Assembly (NCBI GenBank): GCA_964445385.1
Contig: CAYULE010000002.1
Span: 1-41,721 of the forward strand
Origin: an uncultured Smithella sp.
GTDB lineage: Bacteria > Desulfobacterota > Syntrophia > Syntrophales > Smithellaceae
Length of the DNA stretch: 41,721 nucleotides
Direction: 5' to 3'
Below, piece after piece: positions 9,565 through 32,078 of the stretch. Each line of letters opens with the position of its first letter. Within the stretch, counting starts at the first letter, position 1. The notes beneath the pieces are model-generated. The model made no database searches, was not told the origin of the DNA, and worked only from the letters and a program-made list of their open reading frames with translations. The translations under genes were made by a program, and so were the position numbers.

Positions 9565-9566
9565 TC

Positions 9567-12569: not shown

Positions 12570-12624
12570 CCCGCCGTCACCGGGCTCTTCCCTCCCAGGG
12601 GGATCAGGCCCGGCGGTGGACGGG
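12570..12624 (+). promoter_or_regulatory. GC-rich imperfect intercistronic stem-loop between the binding-protein genes and the ATPase genes
   Basis: cccgccgtcaccgggc (12570-12585) pairs, with bulges, to gcccggcggtggacggg (12608-12624). There is an inner ccct..aggg hairpin. Only a weak T tract follows (ttt). Confidence 0.35.
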
Positions 12625-12673
12625 GGTTTCATGACGGAATAATATTATTCCCAAAAAAGGAACGTTTATAAAC

Positions 12674-16163: not shown

Positions 16164-16188
16164 ACCGGGGGAGTTCTTCCCCCGGTTT
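16164..16188. terminator. Hairpin between convergent ligase genes (possible terminator)
   Basis: Perfect 9-bp stem accggggga / tcccccggt with a 5-nt loop, followed by only ttt. Lies 56 nt after the stop at 16108. Confidence 0.4.
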
Positions 16189-16326: not shown

Positions 16327-18027
16327 TCAAACCTCTTTTCTCAGCACCTTCTTGTCGATCTTGCCGACATTGGTGAGGGGAAGTTCCTTTCTGATTTCCA
16401 GGATCTTAGGTACCTCATAAGGTGCCAGCTTCTCCTTGGCAAAATCGATGATGGCCTTTTTCAGGACGTCCATATCCCCTGTAACAAGATAGTCGGGATT
16501 TAGGATCACATAAGCCTTCACGAGCTCCGACCCAGGCCGCTCGGGATTATTGCTTCCGATGACGGCGCATATATTGATTGCCGGGTGTCGATTCAAAACA
16601 TCCTCCACCTTTCGGGAAAACACTTTGAACCCGCCGATGTTAATCATGTCTTTTGTCCGATCCACCAGGCGCAGGTATCCATCTTCATCCTGAATGGCCA
16701 CATCACCTGTGTGCATATACCCATCTGGATCGATGGCTTGCCTGGTCTCTTCGGGCCTGTTGAAATAACCAACCATTACATGAGGTCCCTTGATGCAGAT
16801 CTCTCCCGGTTGTCCCACCTCGACTTCTTTCCCCGTTGCCGGTTCAATGAGCCGGACGTCTGTATTCAGCAGTGGCAATCCGATCGTGCCGATCTTTCGT
16901 ACCCCTTTCATGGGATTGAAAATCGTTAAAGGTGATGTCTCGGTCATCCCGTAACCTTCGAGGATTTTCCCGGTTCCTACGATGGACTCGAATTCCCGTT
17001 GCGCCTCTTCCGGATAGGGAGCAGCGGCTGAGACACAGACCTTTAATTTTGAATGGTCCAACATCTTGAACTTGGGATTCGCCGCAAGCAGCATATAAAA
17101 TGGCGGGACATTTGCCATCATGGCAGGTTTGTACCTGTCCAATTCTTTACAGATATGATCGGTATCCCGCGGGTTCGGAATCAGAATTTGAGTCCAACCC
17201 AGAAAGATGAAATTAGCATTGGTGAAAACTCCGGCGATGTGGAAAAAAGGAAAACCGGTAAGTCCAATACTTTTACCCGGCTCCAATCCAAGCCATGCCT
17301 GGAAAATCAGGAGATCGGCAACGGCATTTCGATGGCTCAGCATTGCGCCCTTTGGTACCCCGGTAGTTCCGCCTGTATACTGAAGATAGGCAATATCATC
17401 AGGTGTGAGGTCAATATTTGGGGATTCAGTAGAAAAAAGCCCGAGCTGAATAACCTTATTAAAGAGATAGACGGTTTTGCCGTCCAGGGGAGTTACTTTT
17501 CCTTTGGGGATCTTGCCCAGCAGTTTACCGAGAAATCTTTTAATTCCCGGGAGGAATCCGCCGACGTTTGTAGCAACGATGGCTTGGAGATCCGGCAGAC
17601 GGGAGGCAACGGGTACAAGCTTTGCCTCAAACAAGGCATCGAGGGTTACCAGCACTTTGGCTTGAGAGTCTTTAAGCTGGTATTCCAACTCCTCAGATGA
17701 GAGGAGTGGTGAAACGCCGGAAACAACGCAGCCCGCCCGCAGTATTCCCAGCCAGGCGATAACATATTCCGGGATATTGGGGAGGTTGATTCCCACAACG
17801 GCCCCTTTTTTCAATCCCAGAGACAAGAGCATATGGGCGAATTGGTTCGCGTATCGATCCAACTGGGCATAGGTGATGTGGACTCCCATGAAGGCCAGGG
17901 CTATTTTGTCCGGATAGTCGAGAAATACTCGCCGGATGATATCCGGGCAGGTGGTTTCCCAACGGGCGGGATGGATATCCCCAAGCTCTGGATCGTATGA
18001 TTTTTTCCAGAATAGATCTTTTTCCAT
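16327..18027 (-). CDS. AMP-forming acyl-CoA ligase, FadD-like (566 aa)
   Basis: GGAGG RBS. Motifs YTGGTTGVPKGA, GYGMTETSP, HTGDVAIQDEDGYLRLVDRTKDMI and GKIDKKVLR. Confidence 0.85.
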   Translation of the reverse strand: MEKDLFWKKSYDPELGDIHPARWETTCPDIIRRVFLDYPDKIALAFMGVHITYAQLDRYANQFAHMLLSLGLKKGAVVGINLPNIPEYVIAWLGILRAGCVVSGVSPLLSSEELEYQLKDSQAKVLVTLDALFEAKLVPVASRLPDLQAIVATNVGGFLPGIKRFLGKLLGKIPKGKVTPLDGKTVYLFNKVIQLGLFSTESPNIDLTPDDIAYLQYTGGTTGVPKGAMLSHRNAVADLLIFQAWLGLEPGKSIGLTGFPFFHIAGVFTNANFIFLGWTQILIPNPRDTDHICKELDRYKPAMMANVPPFYMLLAANPKFKMLDHSKLKVCVSAAAPYPEEAQREFESIVGTGKILEGYGMTETSPLTIFNPMKGVRKIGTIGLPLLNTDVRLIEPATGKEVEVGQPGEICIKGPHVMVGYFNRPEETRQAIDPDGYMHTGDVAIQDEDGYLRLVDRTKDMINIGGFKVFSRKVEDVLNRHPAINICAVIGSNNPERPGSELVKAYVILNPDYLVTGDMDVLKKAIIDFAKEKLAPYEVPKILEIRKELPLTNVGKIDKKVLRKEV

Positions 18028-18068: not shown

Positions 18069-18734
18069 TTATTTCAGAACGATTGCATCGATAAGAAGCG
18101 TTTCCGCAATACGCAGCGTGGATTTTAAATATTTGTTGGATTGTGATTGTTTAGTGGATTTCATATCCATCACCTGGGTAAGTCCGAGAAAAATCGCCCA
18201 GATAATGTCGGAAAGGGCAAAGCTGCTAATATTCTTAATCAGCTTTTGCGCTTTTGCTGATTCGAAGATGCCTCTCGCCAACTCGAAGTCGTATTTACCG
18301 CTGCTGCTGATGACTGAGCGGGTTTCGGGGCTGAGTTCATTGATGAGATCTTGTTGCTGGAAAAAGATGTTCGCCACCCTGAGAGAGTCCGGCTCCTTCT
18401 CATAGCTGCGGATAAAAATTTTAAATAAGTCTTTCACCAGGTCATTGCCGGACACATATTTTTTGTTGACCAGTTTTTTCTCTATCCGTTCCATCTGAAC
18501 GCCGAATTCCTGCAGAAATGGCAGCATGAGGGAAGAGTAGAGTTCCTCTTTTGTGTTGAAGTACTGATAAATGGTCGGCTTGCTGAGCTGGGCTTCAAGG
18601 GCGATCTCGTCCATGGTTGTTTTCAGATAGCCCTTCGAAAAAAAGACTTTTTCCGCCGCCTCCTGAATGCTCTGGATGCGCTGGTCTTTTTCCCGCGATT
18701 TTCTCTCGCGTATGGCTTGCTGGTGCCTTAACAT
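18069..18734 (-). CDS. TetR-family transcriptional regulator
   Basis: 221 aa. GGGAG RBS. N-terminal HTH region IQEAAEKVFFSKGYLKTTMDEIALEAQLSKPTIYQYFNTKEELY. Lies 41 nt upstream of the FadD-like gene and is divergent from the dehydrogenase operon. Confidence 0.85.
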   Translation of the reverse strand: MLRHQQAIRERKSREKDQRIQSIQEAAEKVFFSKGYLKTTMDEIALEAQLSKPTIYQYFNTKEELYSSLMLPFLQEFGVQMERIEKKLVNKKYVSGNDLVKDLFKIFIRSYEKEPDSLRVANIFFQQQDLINELSPETRSVISSSGKYDFELARGIFESAKAQKLIKNISSFALSDIIWAIFLGLTQVMDMKSTKQSQSNKYLKSTLRIAETLLIDAIVLK

Positions 18735-18846
18735 CTATCACTCCCTATGACATGAAAAGTATTGCATAAAACAGAACGCAACATTCATACGATAGATAAT
18801 TCTTACACCATTGGTAAAAAAATTGTCAAGAGAAAGGTAATTTTTA

Positions 18847-18897
18847 TTGACAAATAAATTAACTAGTGTTTAAAAATCTACTCACAGTAGGATTTTT
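18847..18897 (+). promoter_or_regulatory. Candidate promoter with overlapping inverted repeat (putative TetR operator) for the carboxylase operon
   Basis: TTGACA at 18847-18852, then an A-rich -10-like TAAAAA(T) about 18 nt later. Core inverted repeat CTACT-cac-AGTAG at 18878-18890, flanked by AAAAAT / GATTTTT arms (18872-18897, with a one-base offset). Confidence 0.3.
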
Positions 18898-19042
18898 ACT
18901 CTTGGTTAATATAATTTGACAGAAATAACATCAGGGGTGAGTGATGACAAGCCAGTGTTCGGATGACCATCCCCCTTTTGCCAAAATGACGCGACACAAT
19001 GATAAATAACAGGTAATTCGTCAAGACGTACAGGAGGTATCT

Positions 19043-20191
19043 ATGGATTTCTCTCTCTCAAAAGAACAACGCATGTTCAGGGAAACTGTGTACCGCTATG
19101 GCAGAGACGAGATCGCACCTCTCTGCGAAGAGGCCGATCTCAAAGGAGAGTTCAGCTTTGAGATCTGGAAAAAGCTTGCCTCCTTCGGGATACTCGGTTT
19201 GCCCTTTCCCGAGGATCTAGGAGGATCGGGGGCTGACATCCAAACCTGTTGCCTGGCCGGGGAGGCCCTGGGGCATGCGGGTGTGGATGGCGGCAGTTTG
19301 CTTGCCTGGGGCGCCCACACTTATCTGTGCGCCTATAACATCTTTGCCTTCGGCACCGAAGATCAGAAACGGAAATATGTGCCGAAGCTTGCCTCGGGCG
19401 AATGGATCGGATGCATGGGCCTCACCGAGCCGGGGTCCGGATCCGATGCCGCCTCCATTTCGACCACAGCGGTGAAGAGGGGTGACCGTTATGTTCTCAA
19501 TGGGTCCAAGACCTTCATTACCAATGCCCCGGTTGCCGATGTTTTTGTTGTGTTTGCCAATGTCAACAAAGCCAAAAAGCACGAGGGGATTACCGCCTTC
19601 ATCATCGAAAAAGGCACCCCCGGGCTCTCAACCGGCAAGCCCTTCCACAAGCTGGGGTGCAAGTGTTCAGCCACATCAGAGGTGTTTCTCGAAGACTGTG
19701 AAGTCCCGGAGCAAAACATTCTGGCAGGCGAAGGACAGGGCTGGCTTATCGCGCTGAGCGGTGTCGAATGGGACCGCTGCACCCTGCTGTCTCCAATGCT
19801 TGGCGCGGTCCTCAATAATCTCGATTCTTGCGCCCGTTATGCCAATGAGCGTTATCAGTTCGGACGCCCCATCAGGAATTTTCAGGCTATTCAACATCGG
19901 ATTGCCGATATGAAGGTCTTTGTCGAAGCGGTCAGGCTCGCTATTTATCGGGTTGCCTCCGCCAAGGACAATGGTCAGATGCTGAACCCTCTGCAGGCGG
20001 CGGTCAGTAAAGTATATGCCGGTGACAGAGGATTCGAGATGGCATCGGAGGCTGTACAGATCTTCGGTGGTTATGGGTTTATGCATGAGTACTCCGTAGA
20101 AAGAAATTTCCGTGATTCAAAACTGGCAGCTATCGGCGGGGGCACATCGGATATCATGCGCATGATCGTATCCAGGATAATGATGATGTAA
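19043..20191 (+). CDS. Acyl-CoA dehydrogenase, IVD/LCAD-like architecture (no Glu at the C-terminal base position)
   Basis: 382 aa. AGGAGG RBS. FAD/substrate motifs CMGLTEPGSGSD and GSKTFITNA. The C-terminal motif IGGGTSDIMR has Gly where MCAD/SCAD-type enzymes carry the catalytic Glu. Confidence 0.9.
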   Translation: MDFSLSKEQRMFRETVYRYGRDEIAPLCEEADLKGEFSFEIWKKLASFGILGLPFPEDLGGSGADIQTCCLAGEALGHAGVDGGSLLAWGAHTYLCAYNIFAFGTEDQKRKYVPKLASGEWIGCMGLTEPGSGSDAASISTTAVKRGDRYVLNGSKTFITNAPVADVFVVFANVNKAKKHEGITAFIIEKGTPGLSTGKPFHKLGCKCSATSEVFLEDCEVPEQNILAGEGQGWLIALSGVEWDRCTLLSPMLGAVLNNLDSCARYANERYQFGRPIRNFQAIQHRIADMKVFVEAVRLAIYRVASAKDNGQMLNPLQAAVSKVYAGDRGFEMASEAVQIFGGYGFMHEYSVERNFRDSKLAAIGGGTSDIMRMIVSRIMMM

Positions 20192-20209
20192 TTCTGAGGG
20201 GGTAACCGA

Positions 20210-21367
20210 ATGGACTATCAACTTTCTCCACAAGAAGCAAAAATGCAACAGGATCTGGCTGCTTTCTGCAAGACCGAGATAGCACCCAGGGCTAAGATGC
20301 TCGACCACAGTTCACGCCTGGAAGCATGCACACATATGAAGGAAAACTTGAAGATACTTTCACGGGGAGGATGCCTGGAACCGGGATATAGCGGCGACGT
20401 CATCGACCTGATCGCCGTTTATCTTGCCGGCGAGGAGATTGCAAAGGCTTGTCCGGCGACATTCCTGAGCGCCCGTGCGAGCGCCTTCCTGTGCGCCGGC
20501 GCATTAAGACTGTTTGGCACGCACCAGCAGAAGCAACAGTATATCCCCGCCCTGATGAAGGCCGAACAAGTGGGTGCGTTTGCCTATTCCGAAGAACAGG
20601 CCGGCTCGGATATGGCAGCGATCACGACCGTCGCACACAAGGATGGTGAAGCGTGGCTGCTCAATGGCGCCAAGAATGTTGTGGTAAATGCCCCGATCGC
20701 AGATGTATTTCTCGTCCTTGCCTATAGTGAAAAAGATGCCGGCGCTGAGAGCGGCATGAGTATCTTCATCTGCGATAAAGATGCAGAAGGTTTAAGGATC
20801 GGAGAACCGATAGAGACCATGGGCTTGCGGGGAGTTCCTATGGCGGCCATCTCTATGAACAATTGTGCTGCTGATATTTTGGGGGCTACACCAGGAAAAG
20901 GCTATGAACAAATCAGCCGAATTCTTACCATGGGCAAAGTGGGCATCGCGGCGCTGTGCGTGGGTATTGGGAATGCCTGCACGGAAATTTCAGTTAAACA
21001 TGCGAAGGAACGGAAATCGTTCGGCAAGCCGATCGGATTGTATCAGGATGTCGGTTTCAGGCTGGCAGACATGTTCACGATCAACGATCTGGGGCGCATG
21101 CTCGCCTTAAAGGCGGCATGGGCAATCAATACCGGCGATAACGACGCCGATGTTCTGGCCGCAAGCGCAAAACTCTTTGCCAGTGAAGCGGTAACAAAGA
21201 TTGTTAACTGGGGCATGCAGATCTTTGCCGGTCACGGCTATGTCGCAGGTAGTGATATTGAAAGGTTCTACCGTGATGCCAGATTCGGAGAAATCTGTGA
21301 GGGCACATCGGAAATTCAACGTTCTATGATTGCCCGTAGAGAATTGGACAGGTTTCTGCCGGCATAG
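20210..21367 (+). CDS. Acyl-CoA dehydrogenase, SCAD/MCAD-like catalytic base, divergent FAD-contact motifs
   Basis: 385 aa, 18 nt after the previous gene. Canonical GEICEGTSEIQR, but AYSEEQAGSD and GAKNVVVNA sit in place of the usual TEPxxGSD and W/F-I-T-N motifs. Confidence 0.85.
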   Translation: MDYQLSPQEAKMQQDLAAFCKTEIAPRAKMLDHSSRLEACTHMKENLKILSRGGCLEPGYSGDVIDLIAVYLAGEEIAKACPATFLSARASAFLCAGALRLFGTHQQKQQYIPALMKAEQVGAFAYSEEQAGSDMAAITTVAHKDGEAWLLNGAKNVVVNAPIADVFLVLAYSEKDAGAESGMSIFICDKDAEGLRIGEPIETMGLRGVPMAAISMNNCAADILGATPGKGYEQISRILTMGKVGIAALCVGIGNACTEISVKHAKERKSFGKPIGLYQDVGFRLADMFTINDLGRMLALKAAWAINTGDNDADVLAASAKLFASEAVTKIVNWGMQIFAGHGYVAGSDIERFYRDARFGEICEGTSEIQRSMIARRELDRFLPA

Positions 21368-21459
21368 GGAATGATCACGGCCTTCAATCAGATGGATGAT
21401 ACCGAATAGATGCGGTTGCCGGTGATGAAAACGAATGGGTGAGTAAAAAAAGGTGAAAT

Positions 21460-23079
21460 ATGATGGATATCATAGAATCAAAAGTTGATACCAACTCCGG
21501 GGAGTACAAGAAAAAATATGAGGTTATGGAATCCCTGGTGGCGGACCTCAAAAAAGAATTAAAAAAAGCCAGGGATGAGAGACCTCAGAAAGACATCGAC
21601 CGTTTGGCTGCTCAGGGTAAAATGCCCGTGCGCAAGAAGCTTGATCTGCTCCTCGACAGGAATACGCCGTTTCTGGAAATTGCCCCGCTTGCGGCCAGAG
21701 GTATGTATGACGGGAAGGTTCACGCTGCCGGTCTGGTTGCCGGTATCGGTATCGTAGGAGGCCGTGAGGTTTTAGTTGTGGCTAGTGATGCCACGATTAA
21801 GGGCGGCGCCGTCTATCCCATGGGAGTCAAGAAGAACCTGCGATGTCAGACGATCTGCATGGAAAACCGCCTCCCGATGATCAATCTTCTGGACTCCGCC
21901 GGGGCATACCTGCCTCTGCAATCGGAAATATTCCCGGACATCGATGATGGCGGCAGGATCTTTTACAATCAGGCTGTCATCTCCAAAATGGGAATCCCCC
22001 AAATAACGGCGGTGATGGGTCTCTGTACGGCAGGGGGCGCCTATGTCCCTGCCATGTCAGACGAGGTGGTGCACGTGAAGGGCACGGGCGCCATCTTCCT
22101 TGGCGGACCTCCCCTTGTGAAAGCGGCAACGGGAGAAGAAGTGACGGCTGATCAGCTCGGCGGTGCTGAAGTGCATTGTATTGAATCAGGTGTTTCGGAC
22201 TATTTCGCAGAAGATGACGCTCACGCCATTTCCATCGTTCGCAAGATTGTCGAAACGCTGCCGAAAAATGAGAAGGCAAAACTAACCCTGCGTGAGCCCA
22301 AACCACCTGCCTACGATCCCAGGGAAATCTATGGGATAGCAAGTGAAGATCTGAAGATACCCTATGACTGCCGGGAGGTCATCGCGCGCATTGTCGATGG
22401 CAGTGAATTTTTAGAGTTCAAGGAGCTCTATGGACCAACGCTTGTTTGCGGATTTGCCTACATTCACGGCTATCCTGTCGGAATACTGGGAAATAACGGG
22501 ATTTTGTTCTCAGACAGCTCCCTGAAAGCCACCCAGTTCATCCAGATCTGCGACCGGCGCAAAATCCCCCTTGTCTTTTTGCAGAACATTAACGGCTATA
22601 TTATCGGCAGGCAGTATGAGCGGCTGGGCATCACGAAGGACGGCCATAAGATGGTCAATGCCGTCTCCACCTGTACTGTGCCGAAATTTACGGTCATTAT
22701 CGGAGCATCTTTCGGGGCGGGCAACTATGGAATGTGCGGCCGGGCTTATTCGCCGCGCTTTCTGTGGATGTGGCCCAACGCCCAGATTGGCGTTATGGGT
22801 GGCGAACAGGCCGCCGGCGTGCTGATTACCCTGAAGAACGACCAGAACGCCAAAGCCGGCTTGCCGCCTATGACAGCACAGGAAGAGGCATCCATCCGTG
22901 TTCCAATCGCAGAAGCGGCCAAGAAGGAGGGAGATGCCTATTACAGCACAACCAACATCTGGGATGACGGCATCATCGACCCGGCTGATACGCGTAATAT
23001 CCTGGGGTTGGCTATTTCCGCCGCGCTGAATGCGCCCATCCGCGATGATGTGACAGGATTCGGCATCTTCAGGATGTAG
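21460..23079 (+). CDS. Carboxyltransferase (beta) subunit of a methylcrotonyl-CoA / geranyl-CoA carboxylase-type enzyme
   Basis: 539 aa, collinear with the MCC-beta family. Motifs PVRKKLDLLLDRNTPFLEI, VVASDATIKGGAVYPMGVKK, RLPMINLLDSAGAYLP, GLCTAGGAYVPAMSDE and IFLGGPPLVKAATGEEV. The start could instead be the second ATG at 21463. Confidence 0.9.
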   Translation: MMDIIESKVDTNSGEYKKKYEVMESLVADLKKELKKARDERPQKDIDRLAAQGKMPVRKKLDLLLDRNTPFLEIAPLAARGMYDGKVHAAGLVAGIGIVGGREVLVVASDATIKGGAVYPMGVKKNLRCQTICMENRLPMINLLDSAGAYLPLQSEIFPDIDDGGRIFYNQAVISKMGIPQITAVMGLCTAGGAYVPAMSDEVVHVKGTGAIFLGGPPLVKAATGEEVTADQLGGAEVHCIESGVSDYFAEDDAHAISIVRKIVETLPKNEKAKLTLREPKPPAYDPREIYGIASEDLKIPYDCREVIARIVDGSEFLEFKELYGPTLVCGFAYIHGYPVGILGNNGILFSDSSLKATQFIQICDRRKIPLVFLQNINGYIIGRQYERLGITKDGHKMVNAVSTCTVPKFTVIIGASFGAGNYGMCGRAYSPRFLWMWPNAQIGVMGGEQAAGVLITLKNDQNAKAGLPPMTAQEEASIRVPIAEAAKKEGDAYYSTTNIWDDGIIDPADTRNILGLAISAALNAPIRDDVTGFGIFRM

Positions 23080-23090
23080 GGGGGTATAAC

Positions 23091-24578
23091 ATGTTTGATA
23101 AGATACTTATCGCCAACCGAGGCGAAATCGTCGTCCGCATTATCGCCACCTGCCGGGAAATGGGCATCAAGACGGTTGCCGTCTATTCCGAAGCCGACCG
23201 GGCCGCCCTTCATGTTCTTGAGGCTGACCAGGCTGTCTGTCTTGGACCTTCAAGTCCGGCGGAAAGCTATCTCAACATGGATAAGATCATTGCTGCAGCC
23301 AGACAGACCGGGGCTCAGGCCATTCATCCGGGCTATGGGTTCCTGGCGGAGAACCCCGCTTTTGCCGAGCGCTGCGAACGAGAAGGCCTGGTTTTCATCG
23401 GTCCCCATTCACAGGCAATCCGCGATCTGGGAAATAAGACCGTGGCACGGCGCATTATGATGGAAAGCCACGTCCCTGTCATTCCGGGCATGATGGCAGC
23501 GGAAGCGAAACCGGATATTCTGGCTCGTGAAGCGGAGCGGATCGGATATCCGGTCATCATCAAGGCAGCGGCCGGCGGAGGCGGCAAAGGAATGCGGATT
23601 GTACGATCGCCGAAGGAATTCCGGGAGGCCGCCATTTCAGCCGTAAGCGAAGCCAGAAGCGCCTTCGGAAATGGAGACATCTATCTGGAAAAATATTTCG
23701 AAAAGTCGCGCCATATCGAATTCCAGATCCTCGCCGATGGGCAGGGCAACATGATCCATCTTCTGGAACGGGAGTGCTCCATCCAGAGGCGTCACCAGAA
23801 GATTATCGAGGAAACGCCGTCTCCTGTCCTGACGCCGTCACTCCGGAAGGTCATGGGAGAAGCGGCGGTGGCCGCCGCCAAAGCCGCAGGCTATGTTAAC
23901 GCGGGGACGGTGGAGTTTTTACTGGATGAGACAGGGAATTTCTATTTTCTGGAAGTCAACACCCGCTTGCAGGTGGAACATCCCATTACGGAAATGATCA
24001 CCGGCATCGATCTGGTGCGTCAACAGATCGAAATTGCTGCCGGCAACCCCCTGAAACTTACCCAGGACGATATCATCGGCCGGGGGCATGCCATGGAATG
24101 CCGAATTTATGCCGAAGATCCTCTGAGCGGCTTTCTGCCATCGCCGGGGAAAATCCATTTCGTCTTGGAACCCCGGGGGCCAGGCATCCGGAATGACGGC
24201 GGTGTTTATTCCGGCTACACCGTCCCGATGGAGTACGACCCTATCCTGTCGAAGCTGATCACCCATGCGGAAAATAGACAGGAGTGCATCGGCAGGATGA
24301 TCAAGGCATTGAAGGACTATGTGGTCCTTGGTGTTCTGACGCCCATCCCCTTCCTGATAGATATCCTGTTATCAGAGGCGTTCATCAAGGGAGAAACCTT
24401 CACGGACTTCATCGACACGCATTTTGCCGACTGGCATCCCGCCATGGAAGGCGTTGACCTGGCCTGTCTGGCCTATATTGTTGATGATCTGGCCAACCGC
24501 AGAACAAAGGGCGACTTCACTCTCACGGATCGTGAAGCCCATTCGCCGTGGCAGACGCTGGGAAATTTCCGGCCATAA
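23091..24578 (+). CDS. Biotin carboxylase (ATP-grasp), stand-alone, with no fused biotinyl domain
   Basis: 495 aa. Motifs MFDKILIANRGEIVVRII, YPVIIKAAAGGGGKGMRIV, ERECSIQRRHQKIIEE and FLEVNTRLQVEHPITE. Ends in a clean stop at 24578. Confidence 0.9.
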   Translation: MFDKILIANRGEIVVRIIATCREMGIKTVAVYSEADRAALHVLEADQAVCLGPSSPAESYLNMDKIIAAARQTGAQAIHPGYGFLAENPAFAERCEREGLVFIGPHSQAIRDLGNKTVARRIMMESHVPVIPGMMAAEAKPDILAREAERIGYPVIIKAAAGGGGKGMRIVRSPKEFREAAISAVSEARSAFGNGDIYLEKYFEKSRHIEFQILADGQGNMIHLLERECSIQRRHQKIIEETPSPVLTPSLRKVMGEAAVAAAKAAGYVNAGTVEFLLDETGNFYFLEVNTRLQVEHPITEMITGIDLVRQQIEIAAGNPLKLTQDDIIGRGHAMECRIYAEDPLSGFLPSPGKIHFVLEPRGPGIRNDGGVYSGYTVPMEYDPILSKLITHAENRQECIGRMIKALKDYVVLGVLTPIPFLIDILLSEAFIKGETFTDFIDTHFADWHPAMEGVDLACLAYIVDDLANRRTKGDFTLTDREAHSPWQTLGNFRP

Positions 24579-24609
24579 TTGAATGCAGGAACAATAGCGG
24601 AGATACGAA

Positions 24610-25134
24610 ATGCACTATAACCTGAAAATTGGTAACCAGACACTTCCGGTGGAAGCCGACCTCAGAGATGACGGAACATTTCTGGCCAGGATTGGTGAGA
24701 AGAGTTTCACCGCCCGCCACCAGATTATTTCGGAAAACCAGATCCACATTGAGGTTGAAGGTATCGGCCGAAGCATCTATGTGGCTGGCAGTGACGATGG
24801 CAAGCTTATCAACATGAATGGCACGACCTATCTGGTTCAGGACGCAGACATTCTTGCCCGGAGCAGCACGAGAAGGCGGAGTCAAAAGGATCTCCCCCAG
24901 GAGGTCACACCGCCCATGCCGTCAGTCGTGGAGCGTATTATGGTAGCCGAGGGCGATTGTGTAGAAAAGGGTCAGAGTGTCGTTGTCGTAACGGCCATGA
25001 AGATGTTGACTACTCTTTGCGCACCATTCAAAGGAAAGGTTTTGAAAATCAATATTGCCGTGGGAGATAAGGTCATGCCCGGCCAGATCCTTGTCGATAT
25101 CGAAAAAGAAGAAACTGAAATGTCTCAGGAATAA
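24610..25134 (+). CDS. Biotin carboxyl carrier protein (beta-rich N-terminal segment plus biotinyl domain)
   Basis: 174 aa. GGAGA RBS about 7 nt upstream. Biotinylation motif VTAMKM, with the Lys codon at 25000-25002. The domain begins PMPSVVERIMVAEGDCVEKGQ. Confidence 0.8.
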   Translation: MHYNLKIGNQTLPVEADLRDDGTFLARIGEKSFTARHQIISENQIHIEVEGIGRSIYVAGSDDGKLINMNGTTYLVQDADILARSSTRRRSQKDLPQEVTPPMPSVVERIMVAEGDCVEKGQSVVVVTAMKMLTTLCAPFKGKVLKINIAVGDKVMPGQILVDIEKEETEMSQE

Positions 25135-25170
25135 GATCGAGTCCTTGTTTCATGAAGGGAGACCCAAGAG

Positions 25171-25953
25171 ATGCCTGAAGAGATGACTCAAGACCATGTA
25201 CTCTATCGTCTGGAAAACCATGCGGCCCACATTACCATCAACCGCGACGAACAAAGAAATACCATTACCGCGGAAGCCGTCGCCCTTTTCCTCTCCTATC
25301 TGGACAGGGCCGAGGCTGATCAAGCCGTGCGGGCTGTGTTGATTACCGGGGCGGGGGAAAAGGCCTTTTGCACAGGAGCTCAATTGGGAGACGGCGTTTC
25401 GGCAGAAGGGAAGAAAGCCTTCGAGGATTACGCCCGGCTGCTCAAGCGCCTGGCTACATTTCCTAAACCCACCATGGCCCGGGTCAAGGGTTTCTGTCTG
25501 GCCGGCGGCATGGGCTTCATGCTGGCCTGCGATATTGTTGTCGCCAGTGAGGATTCCCGGTTCGGCACCCCCGAGGTTAATGTCGGACTATGGCCTATGA
25601 TGATCGGAGCCCTCATCTTCCGGAATGTTCCCAGAAAGAAAGCCATGGAGATGATTCTCCTGGGAGAGCGCCTGGACGCTCAGGCGGCACTGGACATGGG
25701 TTTGATTACCCGTGTGGTGCCTGTTGACAAGTTGGATGGAGAGGTAAATACCATTTTGCAGAATCTGGCTGCTAAAAGCCCGATTGGAATCAAGCTTGGT
25801 AAACAAGCCTTCCAGGAATCCGCCGAAATGTCTCTGGAAGAAGCACTGGATAACCTCGCCATGAAGTTCTTAGCCGTAGCCTCAACAGAGGACGCCCGGG
25901 AAGGTATCACGGCCTTTATTGAAAAAAGGAAGCCGAAATTTACAGGAAGATAA
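25171..25953 (+). CDS. Enoyl-CoA hydratase/isomerase (crotonase) family protein, single catalytic Glu
   Basis: 260 aa. An ungapped alignment to the crotonase core gives GFCLAGGMGFMLACD (Gly at the first Glu position) and FGTPEVNVGL (second Glu conserved). Confidence 0.85.
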   Translation: MPEEMTQDHVLYRLENHAAHITINRDEQRNTITAEAVALFLSYLDRAEADQAVRAVLITGAGEKAFCTGAQLGDGVSAEGKKAFEDYARLLKRLATFPKPTMARVKGFCLAGGMGFMLACDIVVASEDSRFGTPEVNVGLWPMMIGALIFRNVPRKKAMEMILLGERLDAQAALDMGLITRVVPVDKLDGEVNTILQNLAAKSPIGIKLGKQAFQESAEMSLEEALDNLAMKFLAVASTEDAREGITAFIEKRKPKFTGR

Positions 25954-25965
25954 AAGGAAAGAAAC

Positions 25966-27744
25966 ATGGAAACAAACAACCATCACAAAAGTAATAAAGT
26001 CATCATTGCCAACTGCAGCGGCTTTTTCGGGGATCGTTTCAGCGCGGCCAGAGAAATGGTTCAGGGAGGGTCTATTGATTTCCTCACCGGTGATTATCTG
26101 GCGGAACTGACCATGGCGATTCTCTTTCGGGCCAAGAGCAAAGATCCGAACGGCGGTTATGTATCCACATTTCTCAAACAGATGGAACAAATCATGGGAG
26201 AATGCCTCGACCGAAAGATCCGCGTCGTGTCCAATGCGGGGGGACTGAATCCAAAAGCATTAGCCGCGGAATTGGAACGGATCGCTGAAAAACTGGGGCT
26301 GCATCCCAGGATCGCCTGTATCGAAGGAGACGATCTCATGGGGCGTCTGGCGGATCTCCAGGCGGCCGGGGAGCCTTTTATTCATATGGACAAGGGAATT
26401 GCCTTGAAGGATTCCAAAGCGATTACGATCTCAGCCAATGCCTACCTAGGGTGCTGGGGCATCGTCAACGCCCTTGCGCAGGGCGCCGATATCGTCGTGG
26501 GCGGCCGGATTGCTGATGCTTCCATTGTGGTTGGGCCCGCGGCCTGGTGGCACGGCTGGAAGCAAAATGAATGGGACAAACTGGCCGGCGCCACAACGGC
26601 AGGGCATATTATCGAATGCGGCACCCAGGCGACAGGCGGGAATTATTCTTTTATCGAAGAAGTGCCCAGTTTTAAAAATGTCGGGTTTCCTGTTGCCGAA
26701 ATTGCCGAAGACGGTTCTTTCGTGATTACAAAACATCCCGGCACGGGCGGGCTTGTTTCAGTGGATACAGTCAAGGCGCAGCTCCTTTATGAGATCAGCT
26801 CTCCAAGCTATCTGACCCCGGATGTAATAGCCCGCTTTGATACGATCAGGATCTCAGGGGAGGCACCCGACCGGGTCAAAGTCGACAGTGTTCGGGGTGA
26901 GCCGCCAACGGCCACTGCCAAGGTTTGTATAAATACGCTGGGCGGTTTTCGTAATGCCATGACGATCCTTCTCACCGGCCTCGATATTGAGAAAAAGGCC
27001 CGGATTCTCGAAGATACCCTTTTCGACGCTCTGGGCGGCAAGGACCAGTATCAGCAGGTCGAAGTCCAGCTCATCCGATCCGATAAGATTGATCCGGCCA
27101 CCAATGAGGAGGCCTTCGCCTACCTGCGCATTACCGTCATTGATCCCGATCAGAAGAAAGTTGCCCGGGTTTCATCTCAGATCGTTGAGCTGGCCCTGGC
27201 AAACATTCCCGGCTTTACCGGCACGGCGCCGCCATCGAAGGGATCTCCCGCCATTATGTATTGGCCGGCTCTCGTTTCCAGCCGTCACATCCATCAGAAA
27301 GTTACCATGGACGGAAAGGAATTTATCATTGAATCCGCCTCCCCCGTGGAAGGGTTTATTCCGCCGAAACCACTGAGTATCGACCTGCCTTCTGCGCCGC
27401 GCGGCAAGACAAACCGGCTGCCCTTAGGCCGCTTATATGCGACCCGTTCCGGCGATAAAGGGGGGAACGCAAATCTTGGGATATGGGCCAAAACGCCGGA
27501 GGCCTTCGCTTTTCTCCGCGAATATTTAACGACTGAGAAGCTCAAAGAACTGCTTAAGGATCTGAAGGGCTATGAAATGGAGCGTTATGAGCTGCCCAAC
27601 CTGCTGGCTGTGAATTTCTATATCCGGGGAATCCTTGGCGAAGGCGTTGCCGCGTCACTCAGGCTGGATGGCCAGGCCAAGACCCTGGGCGAGTACCTGC
27701 GAGCCAGAATCGTGGATATACCGGAGTTACTGATGTCAAATTGA
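25966..27744 (+). CDS. atuA: AtuA-family protein (DUF1446, acyclic terpene utilisation family), function unknown
   Basis: 592 aa. The N-terminus VIIANCSGFFGDRFSAAREMVQGGSIDFLTGDYLAELTMAIL and VVSNAGGLNPKALAAEL match my recollection of DUF1446. The C-terminal RSGDKGGNANLGIW...ERYELPNLLAVNF matches the AtuA tail. Confidence 0.8.
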   Translation: METNNHHKSNKVIIANCSGFFGDRFSAAREMVQGGSIDFLTGDYLAELTMAILFRAKSKDPNGGYVSTFLKQMEQIMGECLDRKIRVVSNAGGLNPKALAAELERIAEKLGLHPRIACIEGDDLMGRLADLQAAGEPFIHMDKGIALKDSKAITISANAYLGCWGIVNALAQGADIVVGGRIADASIVVGPAAWWHGWKQNEWDKLAGATTAGHIIECGTQATGGNYSFIEEVPSFKNVGFPVAEIAEDGSFVITKHPGTGGLVSVDTVKAQLLYEISSPSYLTPDVIARFDTIRISGEAPDRVKVDSVRGEPPTATAKVCINTLGGFRNAMTILLTGLDIEKKARILEDTLFDALGGKDQYQQVEVQLIRSDKIDPATNEEAFAYLRITVIDPDQKKVARVSSQIVELALANIPGFTGTAPPSKGSPAIMYWPALVSSRHIHQKVTMDGKEFIIESASPVEGFIPPKPLSIDLPSAPRGKTNRLPLGRLYATRSGDKGGNANLGIWAKTPEAFAFLREYLTTEKLKELLKDLKGYEMERYELPNLLAVNFYIRGILGEGVAASLRLDGQAKTLGEYLRARIVDIPELLMSN

Positions 27745-27794
27745 GACTGTCGGCTTTCTTGGATGGATGATAAACAGGGATCGGTGCATCAGGA

Positions 27795-28532
27795 ATGATC
27801 ATAGAATGGAAAAAAGAGGATACAATCGCTATGATCACCTTGAACAACGGGGAGAACAGGCACAATCCTCCGTTTATCAGGGCAATCCTTGATTCCTTCT
27901 CTGAGATTGAGAAAGACGAGTCTATTTCTGCCGTCGTCATAACCTCCAGCGATGAGAAGAGTTGGTCCCAGGGCATCGACCTGCCCTGGATCATGAATGC
28001 TCAGGAAAACAGAGAATTCCAGACCATCAAGGCATTCCTCTATAGTTTGAATGTTATGTTCAAAAAAATTCTTCTTTTCCCCATGCCTGTCATCGCATCG
28101 ATCAACGGTCATGCCGTAGGAAACGGAGGCATCCTGGCCTGTTGTTGTGATTATCGGTTGATGAAGGCGGACAAGGGCTACTTCTTTTTTCCCGGAGTGG
28201 ATATCAACATTTCCTACTGGCCGGGCATTCTGGAAATCATGAAAAAGGCCTTCCCTTATTACAAGCTGCAAGAAGCGGTTCTGACCGGAAAGCGCTACAA
28301 CGCGAAAGAACTGGAAGAGCATCAGGTGATCCTGAAGGCTTGTGAAAATGCCGAGACTGTCCTTAGGGAATCCATTGCTTTTGCGAAGACATTCAAAAAG
28401 AAACGCGGCATCTTTAGAGAAATAAAAATGCAGCTCAACAATCACATTATCGCCGCCATTGACCACGAAGACCCTCAATATATAGAAGCATTGATACCTG
28501 CGTTGATAAGAACGGTATCTTCAAACCAATAA
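27795..28532 (+). CDS. Crotonase-fold protein lacking both canonical catalytic glutamates
   Basis: 245 aa. INGHAVGNGGILACCCD has Ile at the first Glu position, and YFFFPGVDINI has Gly/Pro at the second. The typical N-terminus IAMITLNNGENRHN is present. Confidence 0.75.
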   Translation: MIIEWKKEDTIAMITLNNGENRHNPPFIRAILDSFSEIEKDESISAVVITSSDEKSWSQGIDLPWIMNAQENREFQTIKAFLYSLNVMFKKILLFPMPVIASINGHAVGNGGILACCCDYRLMKADKGYFFFPGVDINISYWPGILEIMKKAFPYYKLQEAVLTGKRYNAKELEEHQVILKACENAETVLRESIAFAKTFKKKRGIFREIKMQLNNHIIAAIDHEDPQYIEALIPALIRTVSSNQ

Positions 28533-28746
28533 TTTCGAAAAGTCAGACTGTTGATGATTACGGATTGAAAGCTTTTATATAACCTATCTCAGATTTAAAC
28601 TTGCTTTCTTTTTTTGATACGGCGATTTCTTTGTACGATACCCCTTTAGTAATAGTTACATGCCCGCCATTCGTCGATATCAGTATAGCAAGGCTGAATA
28701 ATAACGATCTATATAAAATAAATCAATCTTATAGAGGAGGGGGAAA

Positions 28747-30537
28747 ATGTACGAATTAGATAAGCCGGATAATCTTGTTGAGATTTTTGAAGACAGTGTA
28801 AAAAAATATGCGAAAAACATCCTTTTCGGAACAAAGAACCGTAGTGGTATTTACGAATGGGTAACCTATTCGGATGTCAACCATATGGTTGACGGCGTAA
28901 GAAGCGGGCTTGTAGGTCTTGGAATTAAAAAGGGCGATGCGGTGGGCATCATCGCCAGCAACCGTACCGAATGGGCCGTCTGCTGTTATGCCTCATATGG
29001 CGTGGGGGCGCTGTTTGTACCCATGTACGAAGCAGAGCTTGAAAAGGTTCAGAAATATATCATCAAAGACAGTGGCGTGAAGGTGCTGTTTGTCTCCAGA
29101 AGAGAATATTATGAAAAAGCACTGACCTGGATGAATGAAATTGATTCTTTAAAGCACATCCTCATCATTGATGAAAAAGGTCCAAACAGCTACCAGGAAC
29201 TCATGAATAATGGCTTAAAAAAAATCATTCCCGCAATAAGACCAACGGCAGGCGATATCGCAGGATTAATCTATACATCCGGTACAACAGGCGATCCCAA
29301 AGGGGTATTGCTTTCCCATGGAAACTTCTCCAGCCAGGTCCATGCCCTGGTTAAATCATTTTACATGCTGGATGATAAAACAAGAACACTGTCGTTCCTC
29401 CCCTGGGCGCATTCATACGGACAGACGGCCGAGCTCAACACCCTCTTGAAGCTTGGCGGAAGCACGGGCTTTGCAGAGAGTCCTGCAACGATCGTTGGCG
29501 ACCTTCAGCTGGTTAAACCGACCATGCTTGTTGCCGTGCCGCGTGTATTCAACAGAGTCTATGATGGCATTCTGATGAAAATTCGCGATAAGGGCGGCCT
29601 CGCCCAGAAACTGTTTGAGATGGGGACGGAGGAAAACAAAAAGAAGCGTGAATGGACGAAGCAGGGCAAAGCAAGCCTGATGAACTCTCTGAAACTGGCA
29701 CTTGTCGATAAAATTGTTTACAGCAAATTGAGGGCGCTCTTCGGTGGAAATCTTCAGCTTTCGATCAGCTCTAGCGCAGCGCTAAGCGCACATATAGCCC
29801 AATTCATGTTTGATATAGGCGCCCCTGTTTATGAGGCGTGGGGCATGACAGAAATTTCACCTGCGGGAACAGTCAATACCCCTGTCGAATACAAGATCGG
29901 GAGCTGCGGCAAAGCGATTGACAAAGTCAGGCTTGTTATTGACAGGACCGGTATGAATGATGATTCGGCCGAGGGAGAGCTTATCGTTTATGGTCCGAAT
30001 GTCATGCAGGGTTATCACAACAAGCCGGAAGAAACAAAGGCAACAATGACCCATGACGGCGGTTTGAGAACCGGCGACAGGGCCTTTGTTGACAAGGATG
30101 GATACCTTTATATCACCGGTCGTATCAAGGAACAGTTCAAGCTTGAAAACGGGAAATTTGTTTATCCTTCAGCCATAGAAGGGCATGTTAAATTACTTCC
30201 CAGTGTTGAGCACGCCATGATCTTCGGGCTGAACAAACCTTATACGGTTTGTGTCATCGTGCCTGATTTTCTTGTCATGGAGAAGATTGCTAAAGAAAAG
30301 GGGCTGCCTATCGATAAAAATGAGTTTGTTCAACATCCGGCGGTTATTAAGATGTATGAAGAAGAGATCCACAATCATCTGAAAAACACCTTTGCCAGTT
30401 ATGAGCTTCCGAAAAAGATATTACTTTTAAGTGAAGGGTTCACAACTGAAAATGGGATGCTTACCCCGACACTGAAGCTTAAACGCCGTGAAGTTTTAAA
30501 GAAATATTCGGACATGATTGATGCGCTGTATTTGTAA
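28747..30537 (+). CDS. AMP-forming acyl-CoA ligase (about 600 aa, same type as the gene at 14306)
   Basis: GGAGGGGG RBS. Motifs IYTSGTTGDPKGV, AWGMTEISP, RTGDRAFVDKDGYLYITGRIKEQF and TPTLKLKRR. Separated from the operon upstream by a 214-nt AT-rich gap. Confidence 0.85.
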   Translation: MYELDKPDNLVEIFEDSVKKYAKNILFGTKNRSGIYEWVTYSDVNHMVDGVRSGLVGLGIKKGDAVGIIASNRTEWAVCCYASYGVGALFVPMYEAELEKVQKYIIKDSGVKVLFVSRREYYEKALTWMNEIDSLKHILIIDEKGPNSYQELMNNGLKKIIPAIRPTAGDIAGLIYTSGTTGDPKGVLLSHGNFSSQVHALVKSFYMLDDKTRTLSFLPWAHSYGQTAELNTLLKLGGSTGFAESPATIVGDLQLVKPTMLVAVPRVFNRVYDGILMKIRDKGGLAQKLFEMGTEENKKKREWTKQGKASLMNSLKLALVDKIVYSKLRALFGGNLQLSISSSAALSAHIAQFMFDIGAPVYEAWGMTEISPAGTVNTPVEYKIGSCGKAIDKVRLVIDRTGMNDDSAEGELIVYGPNVMQGYHNKPEETKATMTHDGGLRTGDRAFVDKDGYLYITGRIKEQFKLENGKFVYPSAIEGHVKLLPSVEHAMIFGLNKPYTVCVIVPDFLVMEKIAKEKGLPIDKNEFVQHPAVIKMYEEEIHNHLKNTFASYELPKKILLLSEGFTTENGMLTPTLKLKRREVLKKYSDMIDALYL

Positions 30538-30550
30538 AGGCTAAACCCAA

Positions 30551-30582
30551 AAGGTCACCGGGGTTGCCGGTGGCCTTTTTTT
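30551..30582 (+). terminator. Rho-independent terminator of the ligase gene
   Basis: 11-bp stem aaggtcaccgg / ccggtggcctt (one G-U pair), a 5-nt loop, then a T tract. Begins 14 nt after the stop. Confidence 0.7.
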
Positions 30583-30839: not shown

Positions 30840-32078
30840 TTATTGTATTGGCTTCCATTCCGGAGGAGGGTTCATATAGGATGCTTTCTTTACCTTATCG
30901 AATTCTTTTTGAGTCCTTGCCCACCAGATAAATATTTTTGGTTTTGTAAATTTCCCGTGCTTCATGGTTTGAACAACCGTTGGAGCCAGCACAAGTCCGT
31001 TGGGTGTAATACCGAAAATTTCCATAGGATACTTATCACCGAGCAGGGGAAATACCTTGGGAAAGGCTGCACGGATAGCCCTGGCATCATTGACGGTGTT
31101 GGCGGCGGCAATTGCCTTCGCCAGAGCATACATGGATGTATAATTAGCAGCGCTTTCCCAGGCCAATGGCCGCTTATAGTTTGCCTTGTAAGTCTCGGCA
31201 AAAACCGCACTGGCCGGCATCGATATGTCCTTGATCATGGCCAGGCCGATGGTTCCCTCCAGGCCCAGGGGTTTTTCCATAACCTGGTAAATAGCATCCA
31301 TTTTAGCCTGATCAATCATCACAAAGCCACCCTCGAACCCTTTTGCCCGCGCCTGTTCAACAATCAGCGCCGTGGTGGCTGAAGGACCGCCAATGAGTAA
31401 AAAATCGGGATTAGTGGCCATGGCTTGAGCCAGCGGCGCGGCGAAATCCGTTCTGGTGTAGTAATTTGCCGGTTTGTCCGCGGTAATGACACCGCCCTTT
31501 TTAAGCCAGATCGCGCCAAAAGCTTTACGCCATGCTTCACCATAAGGGCCGGCTGCGACCACCATAGCCCCTTTTCGCCAGCCTCTTTCCCAGGCCAGAT
31601 CCGCTTCGACTTTAGCAAGAAGTGTAAAAGGCATTGTCGCGCCGATAACCAATTTATTGCCCATTTCCGTGACGACAGGCACGCTTGTATAAGCCATGAT
31701 TATAAATTCTTTTTTCTTTTCTTCGTTGATCTTCATCATAGCTGCAATGGTGTTGAATACAGGATTGTATATGGCGATTGCTTTATGTTCATTACGCAAC
31801 TGTTGGGCGATCATGACCGCCTCTTTCGGATTGGCATGGTCATCTTTCTTGATGAGCCGAAAAGTATAGTTCCGGCCTTGTACCGTAATACCGCCCTTGG
31901 CATTGATTTCATTGACAGCCAGCTCAACGCCGCTCATGCAATCCATTCCGTATTCCGCAGCCGGTCCACTCAATGGTCCGCTATAACCAATGACAATTTC
32001 TTCCGCCCCGGCAACTGCCGCCCAGATAAACATTAGAATCATTGCTGTAAGAAAAATTAAACTTTTGCTTTTCCTCAT
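30840..32078 (-). CDS. Liv/HAAT-type periplasmic substrate-binding protein, orphan (no adjacent permease or ATPase)
   Basis: 412 aa. GGGGGAGA RBS and signal peptide. IVIGYSGPLSGPAAEYG and INAKGGI are typical of the Leu/Ile/Val-binding-protein family. Clearly a different subfamily from the pair at 10096 and 11324. Confidence 0.85.
   Translation of the reverse strand: MRKSKSLIFLTAMILMFIWAAVAGAEEIVIGYSGPLSGPAAEYGMDCMSGVELAVNEINAKGGITVQGRNYTFRLIKKDDHANPKEAVMIAQQLRNEHKAIAIYNPVFNTIAAMMKINEEKKKEFIIMAYTSVPVVTEMGNKLVIGATMPFTLLAKVEADLAWERGWRKGAMVVAAGPYGEAWRKAFGAIWLKKGGVITADKPANYYTRTDFAAPLAQAMATNPDFLLIGGPSATTALIVEQARAKGFEGGFVMIDQAKMDAIYQVMEKPLGLEGTIGLAMIKDISMPASAVFAETYKANYKRPLAWESAANYTSMYALAKAIAAANTVNDARAIRAAFPKVFPLLGDKYPMEIFGITPNGLVLAPTVVQTMKHGKFTKPKIFIWWARTQKEFDKVKKASYMNPPPEWKPIQ

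Follow-up and report, generated by a model that had tools for sequence, protein, structure and literature searches.

How might an organism living without O2 degrade carboxylic acids in which a beta-alkyl group blocks beta-oxidation, and which of its enzymes would cleave the carbon-carbon bond that removes the branch? These questions are raised by a stretch of 41,721 nt from an uncultured Smithella sp. (contig CAYULE010000002.1, positions 1 to 41,721; hereafter, the window), which encodes acyl-coenzyme A (acyl-CoA) dehydrogenases (ACADs), a biotin-dependent carboxylase, crotonase-fold proteins, acyl-CoA ligases, and a protein of the AtuA family in a single cluster. On balance, we lean toward the interpretation that this is a TetR-repressed catabolic operon for an O2-independent, Seubert/Atu-type bypass of the beta-alkyl block in a Smithella-like syntroph. 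We infer the catalytic steps of this route, the direction of AtuA cleavage, and the substrate from the gene content, homologies, and synteny of the locus and from a glycine substitution observed in its carboxylase. A branched carboxylic acid would be activated by FadD-type ligases, an enzyme of the isovaleryl-CoA dehydrogenase (IVD) type (ACAD1) would convert it to a 3-methyl-2-enoyl-CoA, and ACAD2 would handle unbranched or 2-methyl intermediates. A three-protein biotin carboxylase, consisting of a beta subunit of the 3-methylcrotonyl-CoA carboxylase (MCC) lineage, a biotin carboxylase (BC), and a biotin carboxyl carrier protein (BCCP), would then carboxylate the gamma carbon, and the crotonase Ech1 would hydrate the product to a 3-hydroxy-3-alkylglutaryl-CoA. 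Finally, AtuA would split this compound by a retro-aldol reaction into acetate and a 3-oxoacyl-CoA, which would return to thiolysis and beta-oxidation, so that 3-hydroxy-3-methylglutaryl-CoA (HMG-CoA) lyase would not be needed. Candidate substrates are acids of medium or long chain length with 3-methyl branches, such as those of the isoprenoid type, and isovalerate and alicyclic acids are also possible.

The evidence from the carboxylase places its beta subunit in the MCC lineage. Against solved structures, the subunit scores 654 bits with the MCC beta subunit of Pseudomonas aeruginosa (PaMCC) and 642 bits with the human one (HsMCC), compared with 461 bits for the geranyl-CoA carboxylase (GCC) beta subunit of P. 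aeruginosa, at most 253 bits for enzymes of the propionyl-CoA carboxylase (PCC) type, and 155 bits for glutaconyl-CoA decarboxylase. It is 56% identical to PaMCC beta, as opposed to 42 to 48% for other AtuA-linked carboxyltransferases (CTs), and its alignment to PaMCC beta starts at residue 3, with the MCC-type N-terminal helix extension present. In a neighbor-joining tree (a fast distance method), window-type CTs are sister to PaMCC and HsMCC in 200 of 200 bootstraps and are separate from every other AtuA-linked CT in the tree. A preliminary description of this DNA had called the subunit MCC/GCC-type, and the tree upholds a grouping with MCC; together, the bit scores and the tree placement exclude a PCC or decarboxylase identity.

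The most informative feature of the locus, which was absent from the preliminary description, is a glycine at the MCC gatekeeper position. The published rule distinguishes Phe191 of MCC from Gly162 of GCC, and MCC has a three-residue insertion before the Phe (PMC4673880). Phe191 follows the human numbering only (in DHFGR); its aligned counterpart in the window protein is Gly164, within FPDIDDGGRIF. Thus, when the acyl-pocket residue that the preliminary description had singled out for inspection is compared, the MCC-type insertion proves to be kept and the Phe is replaced, giving a combination of the MCC-type insertion with the GCC-type Gly. This Gly is present at all nine syntenic loci and in 120 of the 120 closest homologs. 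An F191G mutant of MCC gained activity on geranyl-CoA and was essentially inactive on 3-methylcrotonyl-CoA (PMC4673880). As Gly164 opens the acyl pocket, the natural substrate, judged from this mutant of a different enzyme, is probably larger than 3-methylcrotonyl-CoA, the intermediate of the isovalerate route, and the NCBI name methylcrotonoyl-CoA carboxylase is probably inaccurate for the homologs that bear it. Among other AtuA-linked CTs, some have a GCC-type deletion together with Gly or Ala at this site and the others a long insertion, the basis of the GCC comparison being the deletion-type AtuA-linked CTs of other phyla and the published description rather than Pseudomonas AtuC itself. 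A third class of AtuA-linked CTs, which follows neither the MCC nor the GCC pattern, has an insertion of 10 to 25 residues ending in HFAE(S/T)GR at the gatekeeper (L023, L033, L037, L038, L040, L042, L047, L048, L052, L060, L065, L067, L073, and L080).

These data bear directly on the alternative that the cluster serves ordinary catabolism of isovalerate or leucine, or of the end product of iso-odd fatty acids, with a true MCC acting on 3-methylcrotonyl-CoA and with AtuA either splitting HMG-CoA into acetoacetyl-CoA and acetate or being dispensable beside an HMG-CoA lyase encoded elsewhere. The lineage of the beta subunit, the NCBI name of its homologs, and the IVD-like character of ACAD1 are consistent with such a role, and iso-branched fatty acids with isovaleryl-CoA as their end product would be fitting substrates for the long-chain ligases of the cluster. 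Syntrophic isovalerate degradation via carboxylation is also established, according to the passage of PMC5109826 that cites Stieb and Schink (1986). However, the invariant Gly at the Phe191 position and the behavior of the F191G mutant argue against this alternative, as does the fact that neither the window nor three related loci (L001 to L003) have an HMGL-like gene within 10 kb. In addition, the isovalerate cluster of Desulfococcus multivorans (EchA2-Mcc-HmgL-regulator-AcsA6) is made up differently. It resembles the window in being an anaerobic carboxylation route for a 3-methyl-branched acid in Desulfobacterota, and it has proteomic support, with its Acs-type ligase induced by isovalerate; yet its lyase is annotated as HMG-CoA lyase, its ligase is of the Acs short-chain type, and AtuA is absent. 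Because of this different composition, we rejected it as a homologous, proteomically validated model for the window. Taken together, we judge ordinary isovalerate catabolism to be unlikely, although it deserves serious weight.

A similar picture emerges from the comparison with the Liu/human leucine pathway (LiuABCDE; IVD, MCC, AUH, and HMG-CoA lyase). An IVD-type dehydrogenase and an MCC-lineage CT followed by a hydratase are common to both, whereas the window has the invariant Gly in place of the gatekeeper Phe191, lacks an HMG-CoA lyase gene, and carries AtuA, a TetR-type regulator, and long-chain ligases. The preliminary description had reported neither an HMG-CoA lyase nor a short-chain dehydrogenase/reductase (SDR) in the 41.7 kb. 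Consistent with this, no HMGL-like domain was found among the window open reading frames (ORFs) of at least 100 aa scanned with Pfam, the rest of the genome being outside the scope of the scan, and no adh_short domain, as in the SDRs AtuB and AtuG, was found in the same set; the unscanned ORFs of this length are overlaps of the described genes in other frames or on the other strand.

The alpha subunit of the carboxylase is split, as previously described. Residues 1 to 468 of the BC and 8 to 167 of the BCCP are colinear with the single alpha subunits of other phyla, which are fused proteins of ~660 to 670 aa; the BC matches their residues 10 to 478, and the BCCP segment matches their C-terminal ~150 aa. 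The split point lies within the BT-domain region, the rest of which forms the N-terminal extension of the BCCP.

For the carbon-carbon cleavage, AtuA is the candidate of interest. In the terpene pathway, its gene has gone unassigned since 2006, and the preliminary description still called the function of AtuA unknown, which is out of date now that an AtuA-family citramalate lyase has been solved. The DUF1446 assignment of the window protein is supported by its Pfam score (Table 1). Searches against PDB chains by sequence, whether with the single sequence or with a profile, gave no match. The AlphaFold model of the protein (mean pLDDT 64.8, pTM 0.68) gave a single significant Foldseek match, 9evf chain A (E=7.5e-10, probability 1.0), deposited as 'citramalate lyase - ADP - pyruvate complex', and its well-modeled C-terminal ferredoxin-like domain matched 9evf chain B (probability 0.97, TM 0.65). 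We traced this citramalate lyase to Escherichia coli O157:H7 ECs_0760 (456 aa) and ECs_0759 (105 aa), which adjoin methylaspartate-pathway genes. ECs_0760 is 93% identical to chain A of 9erq and 9evf ('AtuA family protein / citramalate lyase subunit A') and matches Pfam AtuA (PF07287) at 68 bits. Judged by sequence, ECs_0760 is the large, AtuA-family subunit (CmlA) and ECs_0759 the small, DUF4387 subunit (CmlB) of the lyase CmlAB. CmlA aligns to the AtuA profile with an hhalign probability of 95.4% and has the motifs GR..D, EC, and LYE..P in common with it, and the comparison of the CmlB and AtuA profiles gave no sequence-level signal. The RefSeq names at this locus of strain Sakai (L084, 46934 to 48618), 'acyl-CoA synthetase' and '3-methylaspartate ammonia-lyase', are wrong. 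The E. coli O157 locus was discussed in a 2015 paper, in which the DUF1446 gene went unexplained and the fate of citramalate was unsettled (PMC4682846); in a 2026 preprint, the two-subunit CmlAB is used to split citramalate into pyruvate and acetate.

CmlAB (9erq/9evf; E. coli O157 and Raoultella planticola) thus resembles the window AtuA in its PF07287 domain and in fold and profile matches, with CmlB as the counterpart of the fused C-terminal ferredoxin-like domain, and its reaction, a retro-aldol cleavage of a tertiary alcohol with release of acetate, is the one proposed here for AtuA. It differs in its free-acid substrate, its two subunits, an identity of ~16 to 22%, and its glutamate-fermentation context without a carboxylase cluster. 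The AtuA-like proteins ThnQ and ThnS of the thn naphthalene operon (N47 and NaphS2) are reported to cleave a tertiary 3-hydroxyacyl-CoA, the source citing unpublished data (PMC12016498). Like the window protein, they belong to an anaerobic acyl-CoA pathway of Desulfobacterota, in which each lies after an ACAD and a crotonase. Their substrate, a 3-hydroxy-3-substituted acyl-CoA with a carboxyl group on the adjacent carbon, resembles the one proposed for AtuA. They differ, in a comparison made by description only, in being two separate proteins and in that the carboxyl group is a product of the preceding ring chemistry and not of a biotin carboxylase. In the reactions of both CmlAB and ThnQ/ThnS, a tertiary alcohol undergoes retro-aldol cleavage, and the carbon that departs lies alpha to a free carboxylate. 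This is precisely the chemistry called for by the Atu pathway, and AtuA is likely, on this family-level support, to be the missing carbon-carbon lyase.

Alternatively, AtuA might be an accessory factor of the carboxylase, with a role in assembly, regulation, or nucleotide binding, while an enzyme encoded elsewhere cleaves the carbon-carbon bond. This would fit the assignment of the 3-hydroxy-3-isohexenylglutaryl-CoA (HIHG-CoA) lyase step in Pseudomonas to LiuE (PMC4097962), the ADP in the CmlA structure, and the tight linkage of AtuA to carboxylase genes and not to thiolases. It fits less well with the two AtuA-family proteins reported as lyases on tertiary alcohols, with the motifs common to AtuA and CmlA, or with the position of AtuA directly after the hydratase gene, in the order of the pathway, and we consider an accessory role to be decidedly improbable.

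The two crotonase-fold genes that flank atuA were described as having non-canonical active sites, which we also find. In Ech1, Gly115 replaces the first catalytic Glu and Glu135 is kept (by alignment to canonical hydratases), and Ech2 lacks both catalytic Glu residues, with Ile113 and Gly134 in their place (by hand alignment to the same motif). The preliminary description had nominated AtuA together with Ech2 for the cleavage step; the AtuA half of this proposal is the one that CmlAB and ThnQ/ThnS support, while the conserved neighbor of atuA is the upstream crotonase, ech1, and not ech2. In every Desulfobacterota-type locus whose contig reaches that far, ech1 lies directly upstream of atuA, and we propose from sequence comparison that it encodes the hydratase for the carboxylated enoyl-CoA. 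Among related clusters, ech2 adjoins atuA only in the Smithella lineage (L002 and L003) and is absent from the others that have sequence downstream of atuA, and its orthologs (57 to 60% identity) stand alone in unrelated contexts (L085 to L087). Ech2 was therefore rejected as an AtuA partner for want of synteny outside one lineage and is, by these comparisons, a lineage-specific accessory gene product rather than a core partner. The Ech2 family as a whole is without the two catalytic glutamates and has invariant GENRHNP and P133..D136 motifs; it is confined to Syntrophales and Desulfomonilia, where it is usually encoded by a stand-alone gene.

ACAD1 scores 321 bits with the IVD structures 4o5m and 4kto and scores equally well with butyryl-CoA dehydrogenase, so that its substrate is not fixed by these scores. 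Its C terminus, IGGGTS, is without the Glu of medium-chain acyl-CoA dehydrogenase (MCAD), and a Glu is present in GVEWDR, as in IVD; we take the catalytic roles of these positions (helix G in IVD and the MCAD position) to be established. From these residues and matches, ACAD1 is proposed to be a 3-methylacyl-CoA dehydrogenase. The top PDB match of ACAD2 is short-chain acyl-CoA dehydrogenase (203 bits), and it has a conventional catalytic Glu in ICEGTSE. Both ACADs also give sub-threshold matches to cyclohexanecarboxyl-CoA dehydrogenase models, which bears on a further alternative, namely that the cluster opens alicyclic rings of the naphthenic-acid type, such as that of cyclohexaneacetate. Here, an ACAD would produce cyclohexylideneacetyl-CoA, and AtuA would open the ring in a ThnQ/ThnS-like last step to 3-oxoazeloyl-CoA, leading to pimeloyl-CoA. 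By chemical reasoning, gamma-carboxylated and hydrated cyclohexylideneacetyl-CoA would be exactly the substrate reported for ThnQ/ThnS, and an enlarged acyl pocket suits a bulkier substrate. However, the ACAD matches are generic, the argument is one of chemical analogy alone, and genes for pimeloyl-CoA and glutaryl-CoA are absent from the window. We also know of no biotin carboxylase that carboxylates a ring methylene, and we regard alicyclic ring opening as very improbable.

The ligases of the cluster are FadD/FadD11-like and not acetyl-CoA-synthetase-like. The first (14306 to 16108) scores 407.6 bits with the NCBIfam model FadD11, below the cutoff of that model. The ligase encoded beside tetR has long-chain-fatty-acid-CoA ligases as its best NCBIfam matches (419 bits), is also found beside the TetR gene in L001 to L003 at 70 to 90% identity, and is proposed to have an AtuH-like role, its gene being co-directional with that of the regulator.

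Several points weigh against the branched-acid bypass that we favor. The MCC insertion and the overall MCC sequence are kept, and as compensating changes around Gly164 are possible, the carboxylase could, from its sequence, be a true MCC. The AtuA model is of only moderate quality, the lyase data for ThnQ/ThnS are cited as unpublished only, CmlAB acts on a free acid and not on a CoA ester, and the Pseudomonas precedent gives the lyase step to LiuE. Ech1 has no special similarity to the known methylglutaconyl-CoA hydratases. Finally, the absence of liuE and of a Phe-type MCC applies to the window and not to the rest of the genome.

Comparison across genomes indicates how far the cluster is particular to this lineage. 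Species-representative genomes were scanned with a diverse AtuA alignment, yielding 80 loci, and the window proteins were compared by tblastn. The nearest homologs of AtuA and of the CT, with up to 98% identity, are from Smithella, Syntrophales, and other Desulfobacterota metagenome-assembled genomes, in agreement with the anaerobic host envisaged in the preliminary description; no cultured organism was among these closest homologs. The Smithella contigs L002 and L003 have an identical gene order, including the TetR and ligase genes, and L001, a 4.77-Mb genome, has a rearranged form of the cluster. The CT-BC-BCCP-crotonase-AtuA block recurs in the Desulfobacterota/SAR324 loci with contig coverage (L001 to L006, L008, L011, and L013) and is truncated in L012 and L014. 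Overall, 45 of the 53 loci with adequate flanks have a carboxylase gene no more than 6 kb from AtuA, and the AtuA-carboxylase loci include Actinomycetota, Gammaproteobacteria, Myxococcota, and Chloroflexota. Since this pairing spans phyla, the module is general, and the window holds a lineage-specific version of it. The eight well-flanked loci without a carboxylase within 6 kb are L021, L029, L032, L063, L064, L070, L075, and L083; by analogy with CmlAB and ThnQ/ThnS, their AtuA-family lyases may act on non-carboxylation substrates.

The Pseudomonas system atuR-atuABCDEFGH has in common with the window a divergent TetR gene, AtuA, a biotin-dependent gamma-carboxylase, an ACAD, a crotonase-fold hydratase, and a FadD-like ligase, as well as the sequence of dehydrogenation, carboxylation, hydration, and removal of acetate, and the gene content supports the Atu/Liu logic ascribed to the cluster earlier. 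In contrast to the Pseudomonas system, the window has an MCC-lineage beta subunit with the three-residue insertion that GCC lacks, a split alpha subunit (a 495-aa BC and a 174-aa BCCP) in place of the single-chain AtuF (BC-BT-BCCP), two ACADs, and three ligases; it is without the dehydrogenases AtuB and AtuG, and its host is, by its Smithella/Syntrophales affinity, a strict anaerobe. As the core of CT, BC, AtuA, and, in part, a crotonase is widespread across phyla, the term 'new system' in the preliminary description was too strong: the cluster is a lineage variant of the known Atu module and not a new kind of system. What is novel is an MCC-derived carboxylase with a natural gatekeeper change, its split alpha subunit, and the absence of a nearby HMG-CoA lyase gene, the logic and the protein families being known. 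We found no literature on such a module in Syntrophales or methanogenic systems and no literature expression data on growth with citronellate or geranate for this organism or module.

The TetR gene is divergent from the operon, 308 nt from acad1, and is 72 to 90% identical in L001 to L003; by analogy, an AtuR-like role is proposed for its product. In the tetR/acad1 spacer, ~25 nt downstream of a TTGACA hexamer at 18847, lies the palindromic sequence TCTACTCACAGTAG, a putative operator. The pattern TCTAC-N5-GTAG occurs once in the window, against 0.06 occurrences expected by chance. Its core, CTAC-N5-GTAG, is found in both divergent promoter regions of L001 (2515 and 5392), where the sites precede both the ACAD unit and the carboxylase unit, and with one mismatch in L002. 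A repeat finder detected no inverted repeat in the tetR/acad1 spacer, and the motif came from manual comparison of related loci; from this sequence conservation, it is likely to be the TetR operator. Given its presence at both promoter regions of L001, the genes for the dehydrogenases and the ligase and the carboxylase-AtuA unit may all belong to one TetR regulon.

The features of the locus are collected in Table 1. All 11 genes named in the preliminary description are present at their positions in the ORF list, and Pfam and NCBIfam scans confirm their domains. From acad1 to ech2, the intergenic gaps are 18, 92, 11, 31, 36, 12, and 50 nt, within the range of 11 to 92 nt described for the operon as a whole; this range does not extend to the last ligase gene, which is preceded by a gap of 214 nt without a strong terminator. 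The terminator that closes the operon was the top-listed site of the terminator scan and has the longest stem. Between the convergent ligase genes upstream, a perfect GC-rich hairpin, CCGGGGG-N5/7-CCCCCGG (16165 to 16185), is likely a bidirectional terminator.

Table 1. Genes and signals in and around the carboxylase-AtuA cluster (positions in the window)
Feature	Position	Strand	Supporting match or motif
LIV-type ABC uptake system	7611-14234	+	BPD_transp_2, Peripla_BP_6, ABC_tran
ABC permeases (two)	7611-8666, 8692-9564	+	
ABC substrate-binding proteins (two, tandem)	10096-11289, 11225-12526	+	
ABC ATPases (two)	12674-13459, 13350-14234	+	
FadD11-like acyl-CoA ligase, 600 aa	14306-16108	+	AMP-binding 236 bits, AMP-binding_C_3
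FadD-like medium/long-chain acyl-CoA ligase	16327-18027	-	AMP-binding 310.7 bits
TetR-family regulator	18069-18734	-	TetR_N 55.6 bits
Putative TetR operator, TCTAC-N5-GTAG	18877-18890		Motif comparison across loci
ACAD1 (acad1), isovaleryl-CoA-dehydrogenase-type, complete	19043-20191	+	Three ACAD domains (Pfam)
ACAD2, divergent short-chain-type, complete	20210-21367	+	ACAD domains (Pfam)
Carboxyltransferase (beta) subunit, MCC lineage	21460-23079	+	Carboxyl_trans 471.8 bits
Biotin carboxylase, 495 aa, without biotinyl domain	23091-24578	+	Biotin_carb_N, CPSase_L_D2, Biotin_carb_C
Separate BCCP, 174 aa	24610-25134	+	Biotin_lipoyl 57 bits; AMKM motif, Lys131
Crotonase Ech1 (ech1)	25171-25953	+	ECH_1 201 bits
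AtuA with AtuA_ferredoxin domain (atuA)	25966-27744	+	PF07287 554.5 bits (cutoff 22.8); PF23544 68 bits
Crotonase-fold protein Ech2 (ech2)	27795-28532	+	ECH_1 97 bits
Third acyl-CoA ligase, 596 aa, final gene of transcription unit	28747-30537	+	AMP-binding 237.6 bits
Intrinsic terminator closing the operon	30549-30579	+	13-bp stem, 7 GC pairs, then T run

An ABC importer and three ligases do accompany the cluster, as had been noted. The description of the importer as dedicated to the pathway is less well founded: the importer is not conserved in L001 to L003, and proximity is the sole basis for the possible import of the pathway substrate by this system. The tandem Peripla_BP_6 binding proteins within the ABC operon (10096 to 12526) are paralogs, and a solitary third Peripla_BP_6 protein is encoded on the minus strand just past the operon terminator (30840 to 32078). 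The genes directly upstream of the transporter (2253 to 7323) encode a PAS-rich hybrid histidine kinase and a PAS-LuxR regulator, which may add a second level of control over uptake. At the other end of the window, a thiolase of the acetyl-CoA acetyltransferase type is encoded on the minus strand (40018 to 41379; the ORF call has an N-terminal extension of ~45 residues) and might accept the 3-oxoacyl-CoA product, although its gene is 10 kb distant and on the opposite strand. The GC content of the carboxylase-AtuA core (22000 to 28000) is 52 to 55%, whereas the genes on either side, among them that of the last ligase, have 45 to 49%; the difference may be a sign of separate origin.

The absence of an HMG-CoA lyase gene from the window makes this compact cluster a clean system for testing AtuA as an acetate-releasing lyase. 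With its natural Phe-to-Gly change, the MCC-lineage carboxylase is an evolutionary counterpart of the published engineered mutant and would show how substrate range shifts within the carboxylase family. Should isoprenoid or naphthenic acids prove to be the substrates, the module would account for the O2-free removal of beta-branched acids by methanogenic consortia in settings such as oil reservoirs, tailings ponds, and digesters. In the broadest interpretation, which we consider improbable, the opened-pocket, MCC-derived carboxylase and AtuA would form a general O2-independent solution for tertiary-carbon blocks, extending to isoprenoid and even alicyclic naphthenic acids. In that case, cyclohexylideneacetyl-CoA gamma-carboxylated on its ring would, speculatively, feed ring opening of the ThnQ/ThnS type. 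Aerobes treat isoprenoid acids derived from phytol and archaeal lipids by O2-dependent alpha-oxidation; were such a general solution real, methanogenic syntrophs could degrade these acids as well.

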